DNA from: a virus
Lineage: Duplodnaviria > Caudoviricetes
Virus record (IMG/VR): IMGVR_UViG_3300026026_000059
Span: 1-29,826 of that record
Length of the DNA stretch: 29,826 nt
Strand: one strand, 5' to 3'
The notes under the pieces were generated by a model that searched no databases, had not been told where the DNA came from, and saw only the letters and a list, made by a program, of their open reading frames with translations. This document shows, one piece after another, positions 2,603 through 29,779 of the stretch; positions within the stretch are counted from its first letter, which is position 1, and every line of letters starts with the position of its first letter. The position numbers and the translations under genes are program-made.

Positions 2603-3709
2603 ATGGCTGATGTAGCACAAGAACCAGCAGTTGAAGGTCAAGTGGCTTCCGAAACATCTTCGGTTGACCAAAGCGGCTATTTGAATGATGCATTTAGCGG
2701 ATATCTTCAAGACCCGAATACGGATGCCACTGATGAATCGAAAAACACCGAAAACCAGGCACAAACGCCGAAAGAAGAAAAACCACAGGTAGAAAAACCG
2801 AAAGAAGATGTAAAAAAGGAAGAGGAGAAAAAGGTAGATCCCTTCGAAAAAGCATTCCAGAACGAATCGGGAGATTTCGACATTGAAAAGCTCATGGGCA
2901 TATCGCTTGATGGACTCAATTTTCAGTCAGATGAAAAGCCACAAGAATCTTCCCGGCCTGAAGTGAAAAGCAATATTCCCCTATGGCAACAGGAATATGA
3001 GGCTGAAAGAACGTTCAAGGAGAACGTCAACAAATCACGTCTTGGACCTATTGAATCGGCATACACTCGAATTCAGCAAATCCAGATCCCGGATGAAGTA
3101 AAAAATATTGCTCTTTCTGTTCTGAACGAGGAGTACATCAAGGCCAGGGATGAAAATGAGAAGTTCTTCCGAGAGAGGGAACAACAGAACACGTTCAAAG
3201 CGCGCCAGGAAGAACAAGAACGATTGAGAGAAGAGGTTAGGTCGGCCAAACTGCCGGAACTCGCCAAAACGAATGCCATGGCGATCATTTCGAAACTTCC
3301 CGGCGGAGAATCGAAAGAAAAGATAGATCTATATAACCGAATTATGTTCGGTCCCGATGCGGGAGGTGAACTACTTCAATACTTATTCGCCGATAAATAT
3401 CCTGATTTCAATAAAAAAACACCGGAAGAACAAAATCGGGTAAGATTAAAATATGTAAATGAACTTCAAGCTAATGGAGAAAGGCTTCAAGCCCATTTCG
3501 AATGGTCAAAACGATTTTTAACAGCCCACCCGGAAAATATGAAAAAGATCATGAGTCAGGTTTCGCGCTCCGCCGAAGCGAATACGAAAAGCAATGCTTT
3601 AGCGGCGCAAAAGAAACCGGATGGGTCGGTAAATAGACAACCGAAAACGGGAAATTCAAACTGGGATAAATATTTTTCCAATCCCAAGGAATTAAAAACA
3701 CGAATTTGA
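2603..3709 (+). CDS. Probable capsid scaffolding protein
   Basis: Acidic, disordered N-terminus with an E/K/Q-rich coiled-coil body; immediately upstream of the major capsid gene; AAGGGG RBS. Confidence 0.7.
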   Translation: MADVAQEPAVEGQVASETSSVDQSGYLNDAFSGYLQDPNTDATDESKNTENQAQTPKEEKPQVEKPKEDVKKEEEKKVDPFEKAFQNESGDFDIEKLMGISLDGLNFQSDEKPQESSRPEVKSNIPLWQQEYEAERTFKENVNKSRLGPIESAYTRIQQIQIPDEVKNIALSVLNEEYIKARDENEKFFREREQQNTFKARQEEQERLREEVRSAKLPELAKTNAMAIISKLPGGESKEKIDLYNRIMFGPDAGGELLQYLFADKYPDFNKKTPEEQNRVRLKYVNELQANGERLQAHFEWSKRFLTAHPENMKKIMSQVSRSAEANTKSNALAAQKKPDGSVNRQPKTGNSNWDKYFSNPKELKTRI

Positions 3710-3721
3710 AAGGATTTCAAT

Positions 3722-4984
3722 ATGACTATTACCAGAAGTAGTGTGTCGTCTGGTGGCGCACCGACCGTTCCGGCGTTTAGCGCCACGCAGCAGAATAAGA
3801 GAGACGTACTTGACTATATTAAGTTCAACGTCGCGAGAAACTGTAAATTGATTGCCCTTCTCGATGAATTCCAGGTGGGAAAATCGGACATTTCTTTGTC
3901 GAAAGGAATGATCAAGAAAACGGAGGTTACCCAAAAACGTTACGAATGCTATAATCATACCGATTATGACAAATACATAACGGTAACATCGTGCGTCATT
4001 ATCTCTTCCGGTCCGACATATACGTTGACCGCTGACTCGACGGCACAAATTAAAGTATACGACACCCTTTACTATTTCGATCAGTCAACAGGTAAGACGC
4101 TTTCCGCTCGTGTTGACAGCATTACGAATACCACGGTATGCGTTGTTGAAAGCTTCGGCGATACCGCCTTCTGCCCCGACGCAAACACCGTTGTAGGCGT
4201 CAGTGCGACGGCCTACCCGGACAATAGCGTCAATCCGTCCTACATCAGCAAGGACTTTGACAATGTTTACAACGTTCTTCAGATTTCCCGCGAGCCGGTT
4301 GCAATCAGCAATACCATGCTGAAATCGGAGTTCTACGCCACGAAGGATTATTTCAAACTTCTTAAAATGATCAACATGGCGCGATTCTACGAAAAGATGG
4401 AGCGTACTTGGCTGTTCGGAAACAGGCCGACGGGATCGCTCAATGTCAATCCGGCAGGAACCGCCCTTACCGGTACATTCTCGACCACTCAAGGGGCATT
4501 CAACTGGGCGGCGAACAGTTATGACATGAACGGGAACATGACATCATTCAAGCTCAAGACAGAACTTTCACGGGCGCTTCCCGTCGTCGGCGAAGGCGAT
4601 CCAATGATCTGCTTGGCCGGGTTCGATGTTCTGGGAAGAATCGATGATATGGTATACGACAAGGTTCAATATCAGATCGATGTGGGTAGTGGAAAAACGA
4701 CTCTCCAGAAATGGGGGATCAACACGAAGATCATCAAAACGCAGACGTTCGAAATGGAACTTGTCAATCACAAGGCTTTCAATGAGGGAGAATTAGCAAG
4801 AACGATGTTCATATTCAACCCGGAAAATACCGATTTCGTACATCTTCCCGACAGGGATATTTTCCCGAATGTCGGTATTCAGGAAAATGACAGGGATGGA
4901 GTCATTGACGAAGTGATGGGTGAATGTGGGTTCCGTACAAACGATGGCGGTCAGTCCATGGCAATCATAAAAAATTGCTGGTAA
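3722..4984 (+). CDS. Major capsid protein (HK97 fold, SU10/DUF5309-like)
   Basis: 420 aa with 'NVYNVLQISREPVAISNT', 'MERTWLFG' and 'DGVIDEVMGECG' motifs and an inserted beta domain; follows the scaffold and precedes a terminator. Confidence 0.85.
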   Translation: MTITRSSVSSGGAPTVPAFSATQQNKRDVLDYIKFNVARNCKLIALLDEFQVGKSDISLSKGMIKKTEVTQKRYECYNHTDYDKYITVTSCVIISSGPTYTLTADSTAQIKVYDTLYYFDQSTGKTLSARVDSITNTTVCVVESFGDTAFCPDANTVVGVSATAYPDNSVNPSYISKDFDNVYNVLQISREPVAISNTMLKSEFYATKDYFKLLKMINMARFYEKMERTWLFGNRPTGSLNVNPAGTALTGTFSTTQGAFNWAANSYDMNGNMTSFKLKTELSRALPVVGEGDPMICLAGFDVLGRIDDMVYDKVQYQIDVGSGKTTLQKWGINTKIIKTQTFEMELVNHKAFNEGELARTMFIFNPENTDFVHLPDRDIFPNVGIQENDRDGVIDEVMGECGFRTNDGGQSMAIIKNCW

Positions 4985-5602: not shown

Positions 5603-6112
5603 ATGGGAATCAAACATGCGGCTCTCGGAGTTTATCCGAAACAAAATCTTTCCGACAAAGTGTATTATGCCAATCGTATGAACATGCCTTTTTCGTATCA
5701 CCTCAAGGGTGAGGATGGAAAATTCATACCTTATAAAAACCCGATGACCGGAGAACCCAGACGAAACGGCAGAGGGGAAATTGAACACCGACACGAAACC
5801 GTGATGTTCACAAAATGGATAACCACCTTTAGCGATGTAGGCTATTGGTGTGTATTTGTTGTAAACAAAGACACGCCTAAAGAACTTGCCAATGCTCTTG
5901 AAGAAGCGGCGGTTAGTAAAAAAAGCGAAATCATGAGCGAAAAAGCGTTTCTGGAATTCAGTAATCCGATTCTCGCTAAACATTTATCCGACACCGACAA
6001 TCTGTATAAAGAAAAGGAAAAGCTTGAGCGCGACGTTGCGGTTATAAGAGCGGAAAAGGGAAAACTTGAAGACGAAATCAATCGCCTCAAACAGAAGGCC
6101 GGTATTAAGTAA
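5603..6112 (+). CDS. Hypothetical protein with C-terminal coiled coil
   Basis: 169 aa ORF; heptad-like C-terminus; TAATG coupling to the next gene. Confidence 0.7.
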   Translation: MGIKHAALGVYPKQNLSDKVYYANRMNMPFSYHLKGEDGKFIPYKNPMTGEPRRNGRGEIEHRHETVMFTKWITTFSDVGYWCVFVVNKDTPKELANALEEAAVSKKSEIMSEKAFLEFSNPILAKHLSDTDNLYKEKEKLERDVAVIRAEKGKLEDEINRLKQKAGIK

Positions 6113-22107: not shown

Positions 22108-22353
22108 TTATCCACCTATTCCTACCACCTCAAGCGAACGTATCCGCGGCCAATACGACTTCATATTCTTGGGTCCTACCCGTACGTTTACAATATACGA
22201 TTCGTGATTTCGTTCCATTCCCGCTCCTATAATGCTGGTCTGTGGTAAAGTCCCCGCGGGAACCACTTCGACAACCTCACCCGTTTTCTTTTTCCATAAT
22301 CCTCCTGCCTGACTTGTCCATCGAACCTTTGTTCCAACAATTATTTTTTTCAT
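22108..22353 (-). CDS. Hypothetical protein (SH3/KOW-like)
   Basis: AGGA RBS; 'VGTKVRW...GEVVEV' pattern. Confidence 0.6.
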   Translation of the reverse strand: MKKIIVGTKVRWTSQAGGLWKKKTGEVVEVVPAGTLPQTSIIGAGMERNHESYIVNVRVGPKNMKSYWPRIRSLEVVGIGG

Positions 22354-22840: not shown

Positions 22841-23391
22841 ACTTTATCTTTCTTTAACATCGGCATTATTATCCCATCTCCACCATCAAATTTAAATGGA
22901 ATTGCAGTCCTACCGATGACAGAATCGGGAGATATTTGAGGATTTGGAAGTTTGTGTATAATATCCAAATGTAAACATGAAAGCAATTTGGTTCCCATAA
23001 GTATGCTTTCCTGTTTAAATATATATCCCGTTCCTTTGCACGTATCGCATGATTCTTTTACGTGTCCTCCGGTTTGGCACACAGGGCATCCGCATGAAAA
23101 ATATTTTCCTTTGCCTTTACATACATCACAGTCATTATATCCAACCTCTTTTTCGATATCGGGAACATCCATCCATCCCCTTTCGGGGAGTGTATTAAAC
23201 CAAATATCATTCATATTCGGAACCAATTCTTTATGGTTATACTTTTTTATCAGCGGCACCCTTATTGCAATGTATCCGTTTGTTGCATATGTAAAATTAC
23301 CGTGATTGAACGGCTTGCATATCACGGGATGTATATCTTGGGTAGCACAAAACATCATCAATATTTTATCAACATCTGTTATTGACATCAT
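22837..23391 (-). CDS. Protein with DnaJ-type CxxCxGxG zinc finger inside a beta-clamp-like frame
   Basis: Start reassigned to ATG 23391 (GAAGGAG RBS); 'YATNGYIAIRV', CDVCKGKG/CPVC/CDTCKGTG and C-terminal 'GIIMPM'. Confidence 0.6.
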   Translation of the reverse strand: MMSITDVDKILMMFCATQDIHPVICKPFNHGNFTYATNGYIAIRVPLIKKYNHKELVPNMNDIWFNTLPERGWMDVPDIEKEVGYNDCDVCKGKGKYFSCGCPVCQTGGHVKESCDTCKGTGYIFKQESILMGTKLLSCLHLDIIHKLPNPQISPDSVIGRTAIPFKFDGGDGIIMPMLKKDKV

Positions 23392-24033: not shown

Positions 24034-24049
24034 AAATATATCCTATAAT

Positions 24050-24421
24050 TTACTCCTTGTCCAATTTAGAATCACAGCGTCCATCAAAATGTGTTCGCGG
24101 ATATGCGAAGTGCCGTTTGATAATATCGATAATTTTACGACCATGAACAGAATCACTTGAGTAATGAATAAACTTCAAAACTTCATCGGAGCATTTGGTT
24201 GGAGAATGCGCACTGTTAAATTTTTCTTCTTCTACGGCTCGACACCGAAGTGCGCAAAGAAGAAAATCAGCCAGTTTGAATTGTTCAACTATTTCGTCAC
24301 GATACCGATCTTCCTGACCGTTATACTTCGTAACTTGCGGAAAGAAAAATAAAAATCCACTTAAGTCACGAATCCCATATGGTTTATTATTCTTGTAAAT
24401 AACTTCTAACTTCACATGCAT
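24050..24421 (-). CDS. Hypothetical protein (decayed cassette gene)
   Basis: Likely start MHVKLEV after GGAG; C-terminus passes through an attC-like remnant. Confidence 0.55.
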   Translation of the reverse strand: MHVKLEVIYKNNKPYGIRDLSGFLFFFPQVTKYNGQEDRYRDEIVEQFKLADFLLCALRCRAVEEEKFNSAHSPTKCSDEVLKFIHYSSDSVHGRKIIDIIKRHFAYPRTHFDGRCDSKLDKE

Positions 24422-24471
24422 TAGTTCCGCTCCGCAAGTTCTGGCAGCCGCTCCGCGCATAGGACGTGCAC

Positions 24472-25161
24472 TCATGGCTTGAGTCTTGCAAGATTATGTT
24501 TTTCGCGTAATTCAATACCGTATTCTTTCAGCTTGTCAACCAGGGCCATGATCTTTTCTACCGTTGGCTCTGGCAGATTGTGGTTCTTGCTATCGGCCCC
24601 AAGATTAAGAAACTTTGGTCGTATTCTGTCAATCCACGAAGCAAGAGCATCAACATCGAAATCCATAACCGGCTCGATGGTTACAAATTTATCAACAGCT
24701 TTCATATTGTCTGCACATATGGCTTTCATTCTGGAGAACGTCTGTGGTGCTCTAGAAATCGATTCTGGAATATCGCGGTTGGTTTCTATCGTCGTTCCAA
24801 AAATCAGTTTGGATTCTGGAAAATTGAAATCCTGAAATCGGCCAGGATTCTTTGACTGAAATACATAGGTATTGTCTGGCCATTTTTGGCAATGATCCAA
24901 TACCATTTGAATCATTGCGGCCGGAACATGCTCGGCAAAAAGGTCATTCATATGCTCCTTGAAAATAACGTTGCCAGAACCAAGATGTACCTTGGTCTCA
25001 TTATCAATCAGCCGCACCTCTCCACAATAGCGCGGCGCACGTCCCCATCGCGGATTATTAACATAGCAGTATTTGCATTTGTGCTCGCACTCTCCGCCAA
25101 GTTCTGCATGCATGTGTGTTACCCATGGGTACATATTTCCGGTTGCTTTTGCTAATGGCAT
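24472..25161 (-). CDS. Radical SAM protein (phage Gp37/Gp68, DUF5131-like)
   Basis: CxxxCxxC motif CEHKCKYC, plus 'DLF', 'SKNP', 'GTTIE' and 'TIEP'; start MPLAK after GGAG. Confidence 0.8.
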   Translation of the reverse strand: MPLAKATGNMYPWVTHMHAELGGECEHKCKYCYVNNPRWGRAPRYCGEVRLIDNETKVHLGSGNVIFKEHMNDLFAEHVPAAMIQMVLDHCQKWPDNTYVFQSKNPGRFQDFNFPESKLIFGTTIETNRDIPESISRAPQTFSRMKAICADNMKAVDKFVTIEPVMDFDVDALASWIDRIRPKFLNLGADSKNHNLPEPTVEKIMALVDKLKEYGIELREKHNLARLKP

Positions 25162-25218
25162 TTCGTTTTCTCCTGCGGCCACGATGGGAGTTCTTGCGGA
25201 TGCCCTATAATTCAGATT

Positions 25219-25476
25219 TTACGAGCAGCATTTCTTACAACGTTTGACGCTACCGTCCGTCCGTTCCTTAATTTCCTCCGCCTCCATTCCGAGAATTATT
25301 TTACCATTCTTGCGATATGCGGTAAGGTTAATACAATCCAGATGAATTTGTAAAGCTTCACAAATATTGCCATCCTCTGTTCCATGAATTGCGACTAATA
25401 CAGGCGGCTTATCGTCCACCGTTCCACAAATAGGGCACGGTGCGCCAGATTGATTAAAATGCTCGAAAGTTCTCAT
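25219..25476 (-). CDS. Small zinc-binding hypothetical protein
   Basis: MRTFEHF start with AAGGGG RBS; CPIC...HLDC. Confidence 0.65.
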   Translation of the reverse strand: MRTFEHFNQSGAPCPICGTVDDKPPVLVAIHGTEDGNICEALQIHLDCINLTAYRKNGKIILGMEAEEIKERTDGSVKRCKKCCS

Positions 25477-25530
25477 ATTTTCCCCTTCTTGGCTGCGGCT
25501 ATAATATATGGTTTTCATTTGCCATAGTGC

Positions 25531-25671
25531 ACCTATCGTGCTCACAAATGTGTGCAGTGCTGGCGGCTCCCGATGAAAGGAATGCCCCCTGAGTAATCGC
25601 GGCAGTTACTTAAGCCACACCGTACTTGCTCAATGGTATACCGCCAGCATTGAACACTTTGCGCGTTGCGT
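25531..25671 (+). repeat. attC-like site A (left core mutated, ACCTATC)
   Basis: gtgct-cacaaatgtgtgcagtgctggcgg ... ccgccagcattgaacactttgcg-c-GTTGCGT; arms resemble site H. Confidence 0.65.
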
Positions 25672-25699
25672 ACTGCGGCTGTTAGTTGTATGTTTGCGG

Positions 25700-25933
25700 C
25701 TACTCCGCATTACCTTTCGTTTCCGACAATGTAACGGAACCGAAAAAATCCTCGAACGCATTCTCAACCCAAGAACAAGAATGTTCTCCACGACTATAAG
25801 GTGACTGCCCTGGATCAATAACGGTGCCGGTAAAAGGTCTGGTAAATAGTACAACCTGAGAAAGTTTGGTGAAAATCTTAAGCCTCGGATATTTCTGCTG
25901 ATCCGATTCACGACACACTGTTACTTTAAGCAT
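25700..25933 (-). CDS. Cassette-borne hypothetical protein
   Basis: AAGGAG RBS; flanked by GTTAGTT (25681) and AGCTAAC (25986). Confidence 0.7.
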   Translation of the reverse strand: MLKVTVCRESDQQKYPRLKIFTKLSQVVLFTRPFTGTVIDPGQSPYSRGEHSCSWVENAFEDFFGSVTLSETKGNAE

Positions 25934-25985
25934 AAAAGACTCCTTTTCTTATAAACGAACTATAATATGGTCAGCCGCAAATTGT

Positions 25986-26121
25986 AGCTAACGTCTATGC
26001 CACCACTTGCCGTGGCCGGAACATACACGGAAACCTGTTGTTGCATGACATTTTGTATACCCATACACAATCGGCCAGGGCGGGCATCCAGTGAGGGCAT
26101 GGCAAGCTGGCGTTGTTGGTG
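25986..26121 (+). repeat. attC-like site B
   Basis: AGCTAAC ... tgccaccacttgcc ... ggcaagctggcg ... GTTGGTG. Confidence 0.65.
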
Positions 26122-26148
26122 GATGCGGAAGGAGCGGATTCCACCAGT

Positions 26149-26196
26149 ACTGAACGTGTTGTGCAATGCGTGGCGTTTCCAATGCCATTCTTATAC
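26149..26196 (+). repeat. Degenerate attC-like site C
   Basis: ACTGAAC-gtgtt ... tggcg/tgcca hairpin ... CTTATAC; right arm truncated. Confidence 0.4.
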
Positions 26197-26391
26197 ACTT
26201 TTGGTCAACTTTCCTACAGGCTCTTTTTTGGCCCGTATTGTTTTGGCGCAGGACGCGCCTCGTTGATTTATCCACTCCTGCAACGCCAAGCGCACCTGAC
26301 CTGCAAAAGTGCGCTGCTCGGACTCTGAAATGATTTCGAGCTTTTTCTTGATCTCGGTTTCAATCCTGATTTTTATTACCTCGTTTTTCAT
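26191..26391 (-). CDS. Arc/ribbon-helix-helix DNA-binding protein (copy 1)
   Basis: 'VIKIRIETEIKKKLEIISESEQRTFAGQVRLAL' matches the Arc-like RHH pattern. Confidence 0.8.
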   Translation of the reverse strand: MKNEVIKIRIETEIKKKLEIISESEQRTFAGQVRLALQEWINQRGASCAKTIRAKKEPVGKLTKSV

Positions 26392-26432
26392 AAATTTTCC
26401 ATGTGGTTACTGTTCTGTTTATCTATATATTA

Positions 26433-26462
26433 AATATAACCACAAAACACAACCAAAGTCAA
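26433..26462 (-). promoter_or_regulatory. Sigma70-type promoter of RHH cassette 1
   Basis: TTGACT-18 nt-TATATT on the - strand; near-identical to the promoter at 29588-29616. Confidence 0.7.
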
Positions 26463-26544
26463 CAATTATTTTCATTTTCTTGCCCGGCATGACTCCGGGC
26501 TGTCCTGCCGCCGCTCTATAATTTCCAAAAACGGCCAGCATTGC

Positions 26545-26686
26545 AAACAACGTGCTCTCAATATACGCTGGAAAGAGGGCTTACCCACGCCCAGAAATAA
26601 ACCTATCTTGCGCATTTTACCTTTCGGTAAGGCGTCACTTTTTTCATTGCGCTGCCCTCTTTCTTGCGTATATTGTCGTGTTGTAT
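26545..26686 (+). repeat. attC-like site D
   Basis: AAACAAC-gtgct-ctcaatatacgctggaaagagggc ... gccctctttcttgcgtatattgtcg-t-GTTGTAT. Confidence 0.8.
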
Positions 26687-26776
26687 ATTGTTTGACAAGA
26701 CTTCCGCATTATCACGCGCGGCATCCATAGCTTCGTAATGAATAAAAATTTCTTCCAGTTCATAATTAAACTTCAT
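26603..26776 (-). CDS. Small cassette ORF (start uncertain)
   Basis: MKFNYELEE...; reads into the loop of site D. Confidence 0.4.
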   Translation of the reverse strand: MKFNYELEEIFIHYEAMDAARDNAEVLSNNIQHDNIRKKEGSAMKKVTPYRKVKCAR

Positions 26777-26829
26777 ATCAAATTTCTGTTTATTGCCGCG
26801 CCTACAATCCCTAGAATTTTCCACATTTC

Positions 26830-26965
26830 CTCCAACGTCTTGCTAAACGGCGGATAGTTGCCGCAGCTTGACGTACTGCTGATAACTGATAACACATATG
26901 CCCCCACGAGTATTAACAAACGCATCATTAAGAACAGAGGCAATTTCAGCCTTTAGCTGTTGGCT
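26830..26965 (+). repeat. attC-like site E
   Basis: CTCCAAC-gtctt-gctaaa[c]ggcggatagttgc ... gcaatttcagcctttagc-t-GTTGGCT. Confidence 0.8.
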
Positions 26966-27076
26966 GTATGTTGCGGGCGACTCCCCTTGTTCCGAGGCGC
27001 ACGGGGGATATGCAAACCTACCGTAAACCTCAAAACACGCTTGCTTTAAATCACAATTTACTTTATCGCACGGCAT
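26843..27076 (-). CDS. Small Cys-containing cassette protein
   Basis: MPCDKVNC after a GGAGG RBS; about half the ORF is encoded by site E. Confidence 0.6.
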   Translation of the reverse strand: MPCDKVNCDLKQACFEVYGRFAYPPCASEQGESPATYSQQLKAEIASVLNDAFVNTRGGICVISYQQYVKLRQLSAV

Positions 27077-27112
27077 AGCGCCTCCTATAATCGTGATCTC
27101 GCCCGCTATTTC

Positions 27113-27200
27113 CGGCAACGTTCACCGTACAGCCGAAGCTGGCGACTATAATTAACCTTCTACAGCTAACTTCGCCAGTTTTGGCTTGCGGCTGTTGTGT
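27113..27200 (+). repeat. attC-like site F
   Basis: CGGCAAC ... ccgta[c]agccgaagctggcga ... tcgccagttttggcttgcggc-t-GTTGTGT. Confidence 0.8.
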
Positions 27201-27403
27201 GATCGTTTGGCAACCTTCCGCTGTCTTTGGGGCGGCTTCGTGATGCACAGCGTATATGAGTCGGCGGAGTTCCTAATCATTTCGTACCTTGTAAACTTGC
27301 TTGGAGTCACCAACAACTCTAAAAACGCCTTTTCGGAGTCGTTATCTCCATCTAAATACAGGCATACAAAATCCTCGCCGACATCACCAATTGTACTTTC
27401 CAT
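27152..27403 (-). CDS. Cassette-borne hypothetical protein
   Basis: 83 aa with an AGGGG RBS; ends in the loop of site F. Confidence 0.6.
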   Translation of the reverse strand: MESTIGDVGEDFVCLYLDGDNDSEKAFLELLVTPSKFTRYEMIRNSADSYTLCITKPPQRQRKVAKRSHNSRKPKLAKLAVEG

Positions 27404-27439
27404 AGCCGCCCCTACAATTCAAAATGTTTACAAAATGTT

Positions 27440-27503
27440 ATACAACGTGTTGCGAAACGGTTGATCGTGCGGCTTTGCACATGTCAACCTTTCGCTGTTA
27501 TGG
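27440..27503 (+). repeat. attC-like site G
   Basis: ATACAAC-gtgtt-gcgaaa[c]ggttga ... tcaacctttcgc-t-GTTATGG; body nearly identical to site K. Confidence 0.85.
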
Positions 27504-27810
27504 GAAGTTTGGCCGATTCCATAGCTTCCAGTCGCGCCCACTTTCGTGATAAATCCAATGCTGATTTAGCACGATCGAGGCTTTTTTGCAACGATAATAC
27601 ATTAGCCTCGCACTTGGCTATAAGTGCATCGGAGGCACTTTCGATTGTGGCAAAGCAATCACACTTTCGCCAAGTTGACTCGCGTTTGCTCCATTCTGGG
27701 CTACCCCACGGCGACCACTCAAAAACCTTGTATTGCTTTGCCGTCTCAGAAGAAACTAAACCGCGAACCATTTCGATTGAACGGTAAGAACTTAACTTAT
27801 AAACAATCAC
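27484..27810 (-). CDS. Cassette-borne hypothetical protein
   Basis: GTG start with AAGGAG RBS; C-terminal coiled coil; stop codon inside site G. Confidence 0.7.
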   Translation of the reverse strand: MIVYKLSSYRSIEMVRGLVSSETAKQYKVFEWSPWGSPEWSKRESTWRKCDCFATIESASDALIAKCEANVLSLQKSLDRAKSALDLSRKWARLEAMESAKLPITAKG

Positions 27811-27861
27811 AAAAGCTCCTTTGAAATGCGCGACATATAATTTAGGACTCGGCCAAATTTT

Positions 27862-27996
27862 CTATAACGTGCTCGCAAATGTAAGTAGTGTCCGGGCACT
27901 CGTGAGTCACGATACGCCCACATTAAGTGCTTTACCGTGCGGCCACCTTAACGAGATCGGCACAGGCCCGGACATTGCTTACTTTGCGTGTTATTG
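27862..27996 (+). repeat. attC-like site H
   Basis: CTATAAC-gtgct-cgcaaa[t]gtaagtagtgtccgggc ... gcccggacattgcttactttgcg-t-GTTATTG. Confidence 0.85.
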
Positions 27997-28022
27997 GCAC
28001 GTAAATTTTTCTACCTTAGTGT

Positions 28023-28107
28023 AGTGCGCGGTTTGATTTGAACAAACACCTCTCGCTTTTGGGTACTTAAACCCTTGCCGAGCGTACTTCCGATATACGA
28101 CGCGCAC
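28023..28107 (-). ncRNA. tRNA-like RNA with expanded anticodon arm, sole cargo of a cassette
   Basis: GTGCGCG/CGCGCAC acceptor stem, T8, D arm GTAT-ATCGGAA-GTAC, stem CTCG/CGAG enclosing an oversized loop with a GGGT-TTAAGT-ACCC hairpin, variable loop AGGT and T arm GTTTG-TTCAAAT-CAAAC. Confidence 0.75.
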
Positions 28108-28135
28108 ATATAATATAAAAGAACAAATTTATTGA

Positions 28136-28217
28136 CTATAACGGGACCGGCAATGCACGAAGGCCGGTACGACCGCTTATTGTTTTCTATCCGGCTTTTG
28201 TGCTTGCCGTGTTAGGC
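28136..28217 (+). repeat. attC-like site I
   Basis: CTATAAC-gggac-cggcaa[t]gcacgaaggccgg ... ccggcttttgtgcttgccg-t-GTTAGGC. Confidence 0.9.
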
Positions 28218-28235
28218 GAAGTTTTTCACCCTTCC

Positions 28236-28568
28236 CTAACCTATTGTCAAAATGGCGGGATTAACAACGCCGCCATTTGATTTTTTTTTGGAAACGCCAT
28301 GATCGCTATTCCACTTATTCCGAAATTCTTCGCCGCGCGAATGGACCTTTGAAATGATGTTCGCTACACAACCGGCCATAAATCCAGTTATACCACCGGC
28401 CTTTGATTCGTCATCTGCGCGGCAGATAAGAGTGTGACAGTCAAAGTCACCAAGCTCATTATCAAGAATCTCCATTGCGCGGCGAGCTACCATAATGGCG
28501 GCGTTTCCATAAGGATCGGTATTGGCGGCGACGCACTTATCCCAACCTTCTTTATCAACAATAGCCAT
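28236..28568 (-). CDS. Cassette-borne hypothetical protein
   Basis: Start MAIVDKEGW after GGAGG; the longer ORF-track start lies inside site J. Confidence 0.75.
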   Translation of the reverse strand: MAIVDKEGWDKCVAANTDPYGNAAIMVARRAMEILDNELGDFDCHTLICRADDESKAGGITGFMAGCVANIISKVHSRGEEFRNKWNSDHGVSKKKSNGGVVNPAILTIG

Positions 28569-28601
28569 TTTGACCTCCAAAATAAAGGGGTGAAAAATTT
28601 T

Positions 28602-28665
28602 GCCTAACGTGTTGCTAAACGTGTGTTCGTTTGGCTTTGCAAATGACACACTTTAGCTGTTAGCG
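28602..28665 (+). repeat. attC-like site J
   Basis: GCCTAAC-gtgtt-gctaaa[c]gtgtgt ... acacactttagc-t-GTTAGCG. Confidence 0.9.
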
Positions 28666-28973
28666 GCAGTAGTTTTTACTACCGCATTAAAACTTTTCGC
28701 GAACTCAATAGACTTTTGAAGAACGAGCAATGACCGTTCCGCGTCTTCGGTTGCTGAATGCAATTCGTCCGACGGAGTGATAACAGCTCGAATAGAATCA
28801 ACCACGTTCTTTGCACCATCGCCGCTTAGTTCCCATTCAACATCGTGAAGCGCCTTTGCCACTTTTATAAGGTGCTTACCGAAGGCACTGAACTGCGGGT
28901 TAGAATGACCTACGAGCTGCGACGCCGCATCTTGAACATTAGAATATACGTAATTCAACGAACCCCCGGACAT
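28653..28973 (-). CDS. Cassette-borne hypothetical protein (MSGGSLNY... type)
   Basis: AAGGTGG RBS; stop codon in the arm of site J. Confidence 0.75.
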   Translation of the reverse strand: MSGGSLNYVYSNVQDAASQLVGHSNPQFSAFGKHLIKVAKALHDVEWELSGDGAKNVVDSIRAVITPSDELHSATEDAERSLLVLQKSIEFAKSFNAVVKTTAANS

Positions 28974-29025
28974 AGTAACCACCTTTCTTGTGAGCGAAAC
29001 TATAATTAAAAGTAAAGTTTATTGC

Positions 29026-29089
29026 CGCTAACGGGACGCGAAACAGTTGATCGTGCGGCTTTGCACATGTCAACCTTTCGCTGTTATAC
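29026..29089 (+). repeat. attC-like site K
   Basis: CGCTAAC-gggac-gcgaaa[c]agttga ... tcaacctttcgc-t-GTTATAC. Confidence 0.9.
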
Positions 29090-29284
29090 GCTTTTAGTCA
29101 ACTTTCCTATAGGCTCTTTTTTGGCCTGTATTGTCTTGGCGCAGGACGCGCCTCTTTGGTTTATCCACTCTTGCAACGCCAGACGTACCTGTCCTGCAAA
29201 GGTACGCTGCTCGGATTCTGCAATAGATTCGAGCGCCTTCTTGATCTTGGTTTCAATCCGAATTTTGATTACTTCGGTTTTCAT
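29084..29284 (-). CDS. Arc/ribbon-helix-helix DNA-binding protein (copy 2)
   Basis: MKTEVIKIRIETKIKKALESIAESEQRTFAGQVRLAL; close paralogue of 26191-26391; stop codon lies in the core box of site K. Confidence 0.8.
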   Translation of the reverse strand: MKTEVIKIRIETKIKKALESIAESEQRTFAGQVRLALQEWINQRGASCAKTIQAKKEPIGKLTKSV

Positions 29285-29285
29285 T

Positions 29286-29546
29286 TCACATATCCCGCGC
29301 AAACGCCCTGATACCATCACGTATTTTTGCGTCATCAATCCGAGTATCCATACACTCATAAGCGCCATCGGAATTTAACCAAAACTCGACCATCCCACCC
29401 TGCCCCTGCCAATCAGGAATAGCGTAATGGCACAAAGATTTATTTTTTCTTTCTTCCCTTGCGTTTTGTTCTTCACGCGCCTCTTTTTGGGCCTGTGCAA
29501 ACTCATCATCCGAAAGATGGCCGAAAATTTCATTTCTTATATTCAT
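29286..29546 (-). CDS. Hypothetical protein co-transcribed with RHH copy 2
   Basis: MNIRNEIF start after AAGGGG; its stop codon is 1 nt from the RHH start. Confidence 0.65.
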   Translation of the reverse strand: MNIRNEIFGHLSDDEFAQAQKEAREEQNAREERKNKSLCHYAIPDWQGQGGMVEFWLNSDGAYECMDTRIDDAKIRDGIRAFARDM

Positions 29547-29587
29547 TTTGCATCCCCTTGGTTTGTGGTTTCTTTTCTTACTATTTA

Positions 29588-29616
29588 AATATACCACAAA
29601 GTACAACCAAAGTCAA
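29588..29616 (-). promoter_or_regulatory. Sigma70-type promoter of RHH cassette 2
   Basis: TTGACT-17 nt-TATATT with TG upstream of the -10 box and an AT-rich UP-like tract. Confidence 0.75.
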
Positions 29617-29723
29617 CAATTAATTTATTTATTTTTAATTTTCTTTTTTTTCGGTTTTGTTGCCCAGGACGGGCAACTTTTGTCTTGGGCCAAAAACTAT
29701 AACATAAAAAGTTGACTAATTGC

Positions 29724-29779
29724 GTATAACGGCCCCGCGCACAGCCGATCGTTTTAATGTCGGCTTGCGCGTGTTAGCC
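29724..29779 (+). repeat. attC-like site L
   Basis: GTATAAC-ggccc-cgcgca[c]agccga ... tcggcttgcgcg-t-GTTAGCC. Confidence 0.9.

Follow-up and report, generated by a model that had tools for sequence, protein, structure and literature searches.

A TATAAT motif at the complementary ends of phage gene cassettes as a candidate single-stranded promoter

The phage contig studied here (IMG/VR record IMGVR_UViG_3300026026_000059, Caudoviricetes; the whole record of 29,826 nucleotides is called the window) carries an array of small gene cassettes separated by hairpins that resemble integron attC sites. A short motif, CTAYAAT, stands at a nearly fixed distance before these hairpins. We describe its placement in the window and in related arrays, the long complementarity between the two ends of each cassette at whose edge it lies, and its possible use as a promoter element on folded single-stranded DNA.

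The cassette array of the window and its motif

A portal gene and a SU10-type capsid gene lie on the + strand of the window, and from about 24 kb to the window end small genes on the − strand have attC-like hairpins between them. A contig of the same phage, L085, lengthens the array by at least 1.3 kb beyond the window, up to an attI-like site. The sequence-only reading had listed 12 copies of (C/A)TA(T/C)AA(T/C) starting 26-32 nt before a 7-nt core box, and all of them were found where it had placed them. Measured to the core AAC, MTAYAAY lies 30-36 nt before 12 of the 14 attC-like sites of the window; 2000 draws of 14 random array positions gave 0.28 such sites on average and never more than 3. 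The motif had also been called missing before two sites, which we take to be those at 26153 and 28606. Both do lack it: at 26153 the leader is deleted in the window strain (a related strain carries about 530 extra bases at the leader position), and before 28606 there is only a degenerate version, at 28574. The loop of the hairpin at 27117-27196 holds a 13th exact copy (27146) that had been overlooked. The GC-rich bases described before the motif are indeed present, although their complementarity to the opposite end of the cassette had been missed.

Contigs of related strains join at the + strand AAC (26832 to 27116, 28136 to 29725, and 27447), and in related phages 23 of 23 pairs of near-identical leaders diverge from their hairpins 4-8 nt into the core. 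Together with loose ends at the attI-like site, these joints and break points place the crossover between AA and C on the + strand, so that the + strand is the bottom (recombined) strand and the genes stand in the usual orientation. The same break points assign the motif to the leader of the cassette with which it moves. An inverted gene orientation, considered because of the hairpin bulges, was rejected on these three lines of evidence.

Complementary ends of the cassettes

The far end of each cassette has a profile that mirrors the leader, with a GC block, an A-rich stretch, GGA and an arm. Over 152 cassettes, the 12 bases before TAYAAT pair well with the GC block of their own cassette (duplex energy −10.8 versus −5.9 ± 0.13 for permuted ends) and hardly at all with that of the neighbor across the hairpin (−6.0 versus −5.7 ± 0.12, n = 232). 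A perfect own-end match of at least 7 bp was present in 96 of 150 cassettes, compared with 4.4% after permutation. Since the sequences of this clamp vary between cassettes, the pairing reflects covariation and not a common repeat, and these comparisons show, at the level of sequence, that a cassette's own ends are kept complementary.

The predicted end fold consists of an inner duplex of about 19 bp, a mismatch bubble with unpaired stretches of 13 and 13 nt (medians) and a clamp of 7-11 bp. Counted outward from the core, 16 of the first 18 positions have own-end pairing of 0.61-0.91. At position 8 of the inner duplex, the bottom strand has T.G in 110 of 152 cassettes and C.A in none, a sequence bias by which this pair is shown to mark the bottom strand; only this bias bears on recombination of a folded single strand.

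The motif sits at the edge of the clamp. A copy with at most one mismatch is present in 111 of the 152 cassettes, and 86 of these have a clear clamp (80 after collapsing). Numbered as a −10 box, the clamp ends at position −14 in 73 of the 86, so that CTAYAAT begins exactly at the clamp edge and the template opposite would give GGA, with G at −3/−2 in 65-69% of the 80 cassettes. Only positions −23 to −14 were used to fit the register; the unfitted −13 and −12 pair at 0.07, below chance. The fixed distance between motif and core is thus structural, because the motif begins at the clamp edge of the end fold. In the window, nine of nine intact cassettes have a clamp of 6-10 bp ending at the first base of the motif, and neighboring ends do not match; a matching trailer in place is absent for a mosaic Arc-like cassette and for three distal leaders. 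The features of the array are as follows.

24043..24049, + strand: CTATAAT before a decayed site (core AGC at 24076); the matching trailer is no longer present
25205..25211, + strand: CTATAAT before a half site (core 25238); a related strain has about 940 extra bases at 25254
25499..25505, + strand: CTATAAT before hairpin 25535-25667 (core ATC); leader deleted in a related strain
25681..25992, − strand: cassette with motif 25960; 7-bp clamp of 25953-25959 with 25716-25722; then hairpin 25990-26117 on +
26153..26193, + strand: damaged attC-like site, motif absent; leader deleted in the window strain
26516..26522, + strand: CTATAAT before hairpin 26549-26682; Arc-like cassette with mismatched leader and trailer (mosaic)
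26680..26836, − strand: cassette with motif 26802; 8-bp clamp of 26794-26801 with 26716-26723; then hairpin 26834-26961 on +
26959..27119, − strand: cassette with motif 27085; 7-bp clamp of 27078-27084 with 26994-27000; missing with its hairpin in a related strain (joint 26832 to 27116)
27117..27196, + strand: 80-nt attC-like hairpin; second motif copy (27146) where the loop begins
27194..27446, − strand: cassette with motif 27412; 8-bp clamp of 27404-27411 with 27230-27237; then hairpin 27444-27499 on +
27497..27868, − strand: cassette with motif 27835; 7-bp clamp of 27828-27834 with 27531-27537; inner duplex 16/20; then hairpin 27866-27992 on +
27990..28142, − strand: 153-nt cassette with no evident gene, motif 28108; 7-bp clamp of 28101-28107 with 28024-28030; then hairpin 28140-28213 on +
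28211..28608, − strand: Tad4 cassette with degenerate motif 28574; 10-bp clamp of 28564-28573 with 28247-28256; inner duplex 17/20; then hairpin 28606-28661 on +
28659..29032, − strand: cassette with motif 29000; 6-bp clamp of 28994-28999 with 28695-28700; then hairpin 29030-29085 on +
29083..29730, − strand: Arc-like cassette that carries a sigma-70-like promoter of its own; motif 29697; 9-bp clamp of 29688-29696 with 29118-29126; inner duplex 18/20
29728..29775, + strand: last attC-like hairpin in the window; the array continues beyond

Complementary ends could also pair as RNA, in which case each transcript would close into a stem whose internal loop contains AUURUAG and serves in processing or as a protein site. 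The Watson-Crick pairs are valid on both strands, top-strand G.U pairs are possible at the bubble edge (48, 45 and 35 of 152 at three positions), and the best fold of leaders taken by themselves is as top-strand RNA (z −9.8). However, the T.G found at position 8 in 110 of 152 cassettes is a C.A mismatch on the top strand, the structure is kept in cassettes that have an internal promoter (29083-29730) or no gene, and the motif is independent of the start codon, leaving this explanation only a slim chance.

A Shine-Dalgarno or other translation element was rejected, with the exact motif in 27 of 79, 21 of 49, 10 of 32 and 18 of 36 leaders across start-distance classes; so was a stop codon, an in-frame TAG being present in just 4 of 11 loop copies and 31 of 76 leaders. 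The suggestion of a phage promoter before each gene is not supported, since the motif is independent of start-codon distance and nearly absent before other phage genes; likewise, a general phage promoter was rejected on 215 profile matches in arrays versus 2 intergenic sense matches elsewhere in 572 kb. A coding-strand promoter with its −35 box in the core would have a spacer of about 20 nt and was discarded. Leaders fold locally above shuffles, yet no covarying register was found for a fixed local hairpin, and the motif falls in the loop in 62 of 132 leaders versus 69 after arm swaps.

Several further observations concern the window. The Tad4 cassette encodes at 28236-28649 (−) an inhibitor of the Thoeris defence (PF25186, E 1e-8). 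Two Arc-like repressor cassettes that are 86% alike (26191-26481 and 29084-29635) are both preceded by a 63-nt repeat holding a sigma-70-like promoter, and a related strain is a recombinant between them. Another CTATAAT, at 22227-22233, follows GC-rich bases near the junction of two gene blocks, where an attC-like site is absent. A 16-nt inverted repeat (23083-23098 / 25191-25206) ties the clamp of leader 25205 to a spot within a gene 2.1 kb away, and is either chance or an old cassette end. In L085, a 372-nt cassette is present in two copies (2748-3119 and 4010 onward), one adjoining the attI-like site; one run shows double depth for it, and it is a recent duplication. Two single-protein searches and blastn against phages found no close relatives of the phage, and its capsid relatives (G001, G002, G004 and G005) gave no array match, suggesting that the array was gained or lost within the group.

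Related arrays, long attC sites and integrases

A motif-blind hairpin pattern matched 39 stretches in genomes and 53 in metagenomes, and a motif-bearing pattern matched 82 in viral contigs, many of them by chance. A hairpin detector then retained 260 distinct sites in 56 loci, each with at least two sites, which were classed by eye after the data were seen as phage-type, bacterial-type (12 sites) or low-GC (7 sites). Phage-type loci are those with small cassettes; phage genes were shown for L095, L105 and L122, and the others are IMG/VR records or unannotated short contigs. Removing 30 of 241 sites that matched the query and collapsing near-copies left a set of 196 phage-type sites.

Exact TAYAAT stands at 27-35 nt in 72 of these 196 sites (2.4 in shuffles, maximum 7), in arrays of unrelated phages and with a peak at 30-31 nt. 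Because viral arrays were retrieved via the motif, their rate is biased upward; in the motif-blind metagenome subset, the exact motif occurs in 17 of 34 sites (0.4 in shuffles). Two motif-blind patterns gave zero matches in viral contigs, and a loose motif pattern gave only background in five genomes. A motif copy not derived from the query is present in 38 of 46 loci, which are partly non-independent, and no decay or gradient of the motif was seen along arrays.

The same attC-like site type is present in 23 of 41 genomes of the G007 family (Chitinispirillaceae), whose leaders carry the exact motif in only 3 of 48 cases (p = 1.6e-5), many having TCTTAT or TCTTT in its place. Bacterial cassettes show the same duplex, bubble and clamp (at least 7 bp in 14 of 21 versus 5.9%), with pyrimidines on both sides of the bubble. 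As they keep this architecture mostly without the −10-like box, the box looks like a phage-side addition. Low-GC arrays, presumably from Bacteroidota hosts, in which the promoter consensus differs, have end pairing over just 12 positions and the motif in 2 of 48 leaders; their joint lack of motif, loop copy and clamp was counted in favor of a promoter.

These bacterial cassettes bear directly on the idea that the likeness to TATAAT is incidental and that the whole structure (inverted repeats, bubble and motif) either is a scar left by cassette genesis or is bound, in the folded circle, by integrase or some other protein. Their shared fold, the TCTTAT-like bases at the same place (14 of 56 versus 2 of 210), the recurrence of leader and trailer elements as the loop of 80-nt attC sites and the weak conservation of T at −7 all fit such an origin. 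Against it, the commonest hexamer in the phage-type set is exactly TATAAT (51 of 196, followed by TACAAT with 25), a neutral scar might decay along arrays and none does, and leaders have no close match to attC interiors (best score 35). We therefore regard it as unlikely for the whole structure, although a genesis scar, as proposed in the sequence-only reading, may still account for the inverted repeats and bubble common to bacterial cassettes.

A second copy of the motif was found inside long attC sites. TAYAAW occurs on the bottom strand at +27 to +34 in 17 of 44 attC sites of 71-100 nt (0.55 in shuffles), and as a loop copy in 14 of 98 longer sites (1.3 in shuffles) and in 1 of 78 sites of at most 70 nt. 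The loop copy begins exactly where the stem ends and follows stem length, and TCC often comes after it within the loop (a strict pattern finds this in 6 of 16). By sequence, long attC sites appear to hold a second stem-TATAAT-TCC-stem unit as their loop. Leader and loop copies are not associated with each other.

In L085:3139-3399 and in phage loci with long attC sites, genes also read into the attC, with 49 of 61 stopping inside the site, and thirteen proteins with unrelated N-termini have one shared attC-encoded C-terminal module starting at the R'' core. Hairpins are re-assorted at the R'' end as well (19 of 22 pairs), which suggests crossovers at both ends and domain shuffling. In L151, two attC-like sites (4185-4275 and 5991-6070) are oppositely oriented within the array.

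Phage recombinases of 279-307 aa lie directly before and in line with the arrays of L216 (1105-2025), L217 (1456-2292) and L218 (1111-2004). Their scores on TIGR02249 (cut-off 265) are 114-142 bits, with the match split into two stretches; they are XerA-like and align without the I2 insertion that sets IntI apart. An attI-like site with a small inverted repeat starts 26-37 bp past their stop codons. In contigs of the window phage from three runs, the core AAC is followed at two places in the array by one and the same sequence that forms no hairpin; it lies beside the duplicated first cassette and is read, from the contigs, as a putative attI-like entry site. Relatives of the short integrases also lie beside bacterial arrays of the G007 family (L313-L319), in open frames of 385-522 aa that exceed the phage ones.

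The hairpins have core boxes and a crossover between G and TT, as in classical attC sites, which have a 1-nt central spacer with its extrahelical-base pattern; the phage spacers are 4-5 nt instead, and Rfam returned no match for the sites. In classical integrons, cassette ends are complementary over the 7-bp core only, versus about 40 nt in the phage cassettes. The I2 helix has been tied to single-strand recombination (PMC7790495), and end pairing may also give duplex arms to an integrase that lacks it.

Integrase binding is itself an alternative explanation of the motif, which had been compared to the DR1/DR2 repeats of attI1, three helical turns from the crossover. Accessory sites do exist in attI1 (PMC8946536), the spacing peaks at 30-31 nt and the attI-like site of L218 has a core-like repeat 31 bp upstream. 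The leader copy, however, lies on the cassette side of the crossover and not on the platform side, the ATT of the integrase arm is missing, the loop copy tracks stem length and not distance, and the motif is mostly missing from bacterial arrays whose integrase is of the same kind. We consider such a repeat highly improbable.

A candidate promoter on folded single strands

The reading that we favor, with some reserve, is that CTAYAAT in the terminal inverted repeats is a sigma-70 −10 box acting on folded single-stranded DNA. Over the 196 sites, its profile is T.91, A.75, Y.93, A.77, A.87 and T.64, that of a −10 hexamer, and position −10 holds T in 49 cases, C in 25 and A in 2; purines at this position inhibit fork binding more (PMC3753650). 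The open complex melts 12-14 bp, from −11 to +2 (PMC4496690), and RNA polymerase binds fork junctions with an unpaired −10 (PMC2613000). The predicted fold matches this geometry: paired up to −14, it leaves TATAAT unpaired on the non-template side within a bubble of 13 nt and is duplex again downstream. It is predicted to form at the cassette junction only when a single strand folds, at a place 3' of the gene on its template strand, and the covarying clamps support it.

Under this model, a cassette excised as a bottom-strand circle, or its strand exposed in replication, would pair its own ends and lengthen the attC hairpin, providing double-stranded arms for a short XerA-like integrase. The same fold would offer a ready-opened bubble whose non-template side has TATAAT and whose template side has TTCC; host RNA polymerase could load onto it without melting or a −35 box, starting at about GGA and producing sense RNA through the attC toward the cassette's own gene. 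Such RNA would be a primer for the missing strand or a message, and the data fit both. That the site is a single-stranded promoter or primer site giving sense RNA seems to us reasonably likely; its use by polymerase in either role is what we infer from the fold.

A −10 box in ordinary duplex DNA, firing antisense into the attC and thereby exposing the bottom strand or damping the upstream gene, agrees with the consensus and strand, a part of the sequence-only reading that held up. Antisense promoters in gene-less Vibrio cassettes reduce upstream expression (10.1101/2023.11.21.568050), and cruciform extrusion of long loops requires melting (PMC8946536). However, TTG occurs at spacers of 16, 17 and 18 in only 7, 4 and 1 of 133 leaders, G at −14 in 4%, and the pyrimidine-purine start signal is absent, so that neither a −35 box, an extended −10 nor a start site is in place; the clamp ending exactly at the motif and the mismatched opposite bases would also go unexplained. 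A promoter scan of the window reported none of the motif copies, and 400 kb of G077 gave no clear signal for a host promoter consensus. An antisense duplex promoter is thus quite unlikely.

Several points weigh against the single-stranded promoter. T at −7, on which fork binding strongly depends (PMC2613000, PMC3753650), is conserved in just 64-79% of sites versus 90% in E. coli promoters. The bubble spans −13 to about −1, two bases upstream of the normal open complex, no −35 box precedes it, and the clamp extends for no more than about 9 bp. At least two motif mismatches occur in 63 of the 196 phage-type sites, as against the 72 that are exact. The same bubble exists in boxless bacterial cassettes and so needs a different or earlier cause, low-GC arrays show no Bacteroidota-type box as a substitute, and the G.U pairs at the bubble edge suit an RNA stem equally well. 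Moreover, no integrase was found for the window phage by profile searches of the window or among 33 integrase-homologue matches; PF00589 matched in 5 of 36 virus records searched and in 1 of 13 near-complete array-bearing ones, with none in the other 12. The weak T at −7, the two-base offset, the many decayed copies and the boxless bacterial bubble are what hold our confidence to this level.

Among known systems, the closest in kind is Frpo of the F plasmid leading region, where a promoter likewise exists only when one strand folds; Frpo promoters drive early genes and make primer RNA (PMC9849209, PMC10085688). An Frpo promoter is a single local stem-loop in which both the −35 and the −10 box are re-created (PMC9849209, PMC10085688), whereas the site in the phage cassettes would be built from two distant cassette ends, with no −35 and with the −10 unpaired in a mismatch bubble. 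Integron cassettes and the phage clusters of attC sites lacking integron-integrases (CALINs) of Qi et al. 2023 (PMC9892861) share the attC-like hairpins, the crossover, an attI-like entry, small genes in one orientation and arrays often without integrase; no leader motif appears in the passages that describe them. Gene-less cassettes also have promoter activity inside the cassette, on either strand (PMC6557892; 10.1101/2023.11.21.568050), but as described there these are ordinary duplex promoters in special cassettes, unlike a fixed element in most gene cassettes. In T4-type phages, promoter-early stem-loop (PeSL) units bound shuffled small genes and yield mini-circles (PMC2839356); these are sense duplex promoters with terminators that recombine PeSL to PeSL, and the abstract describing them names no attC-type core or integrase. 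Full-text searches of open papers in PubMed Central and bioRxiv turned up no description of the motif or of extended complementarity between the ends of cassettes.

It is an open question whether integron cassettes, once excised, are single- or double-stranded (PMC8946536). Complementarity between a cassette's own ends offers a concrete substrate for an integrase that would have to handle folded sites without the I2 helix, and matched ends give a reason why circles should integrate more readily than arrays fall apart. If true, a −10 box in a pre-formed bubble would couple excision to priming or expression, a step undescribed for cassettes in the open literature searched. We tentatively suggest, as a possibility somewhat short of even, that excised cassettes may be self-starting single-stranded minicircles, in which one fold would build both the integrase substrate and a pre-opened promoter, so that host RNA polymerase would prime the second strand or transcribe the cargo (anti-defence genes such as Tad4) at excision, and cassettes could pass between unrelated phages as active units.

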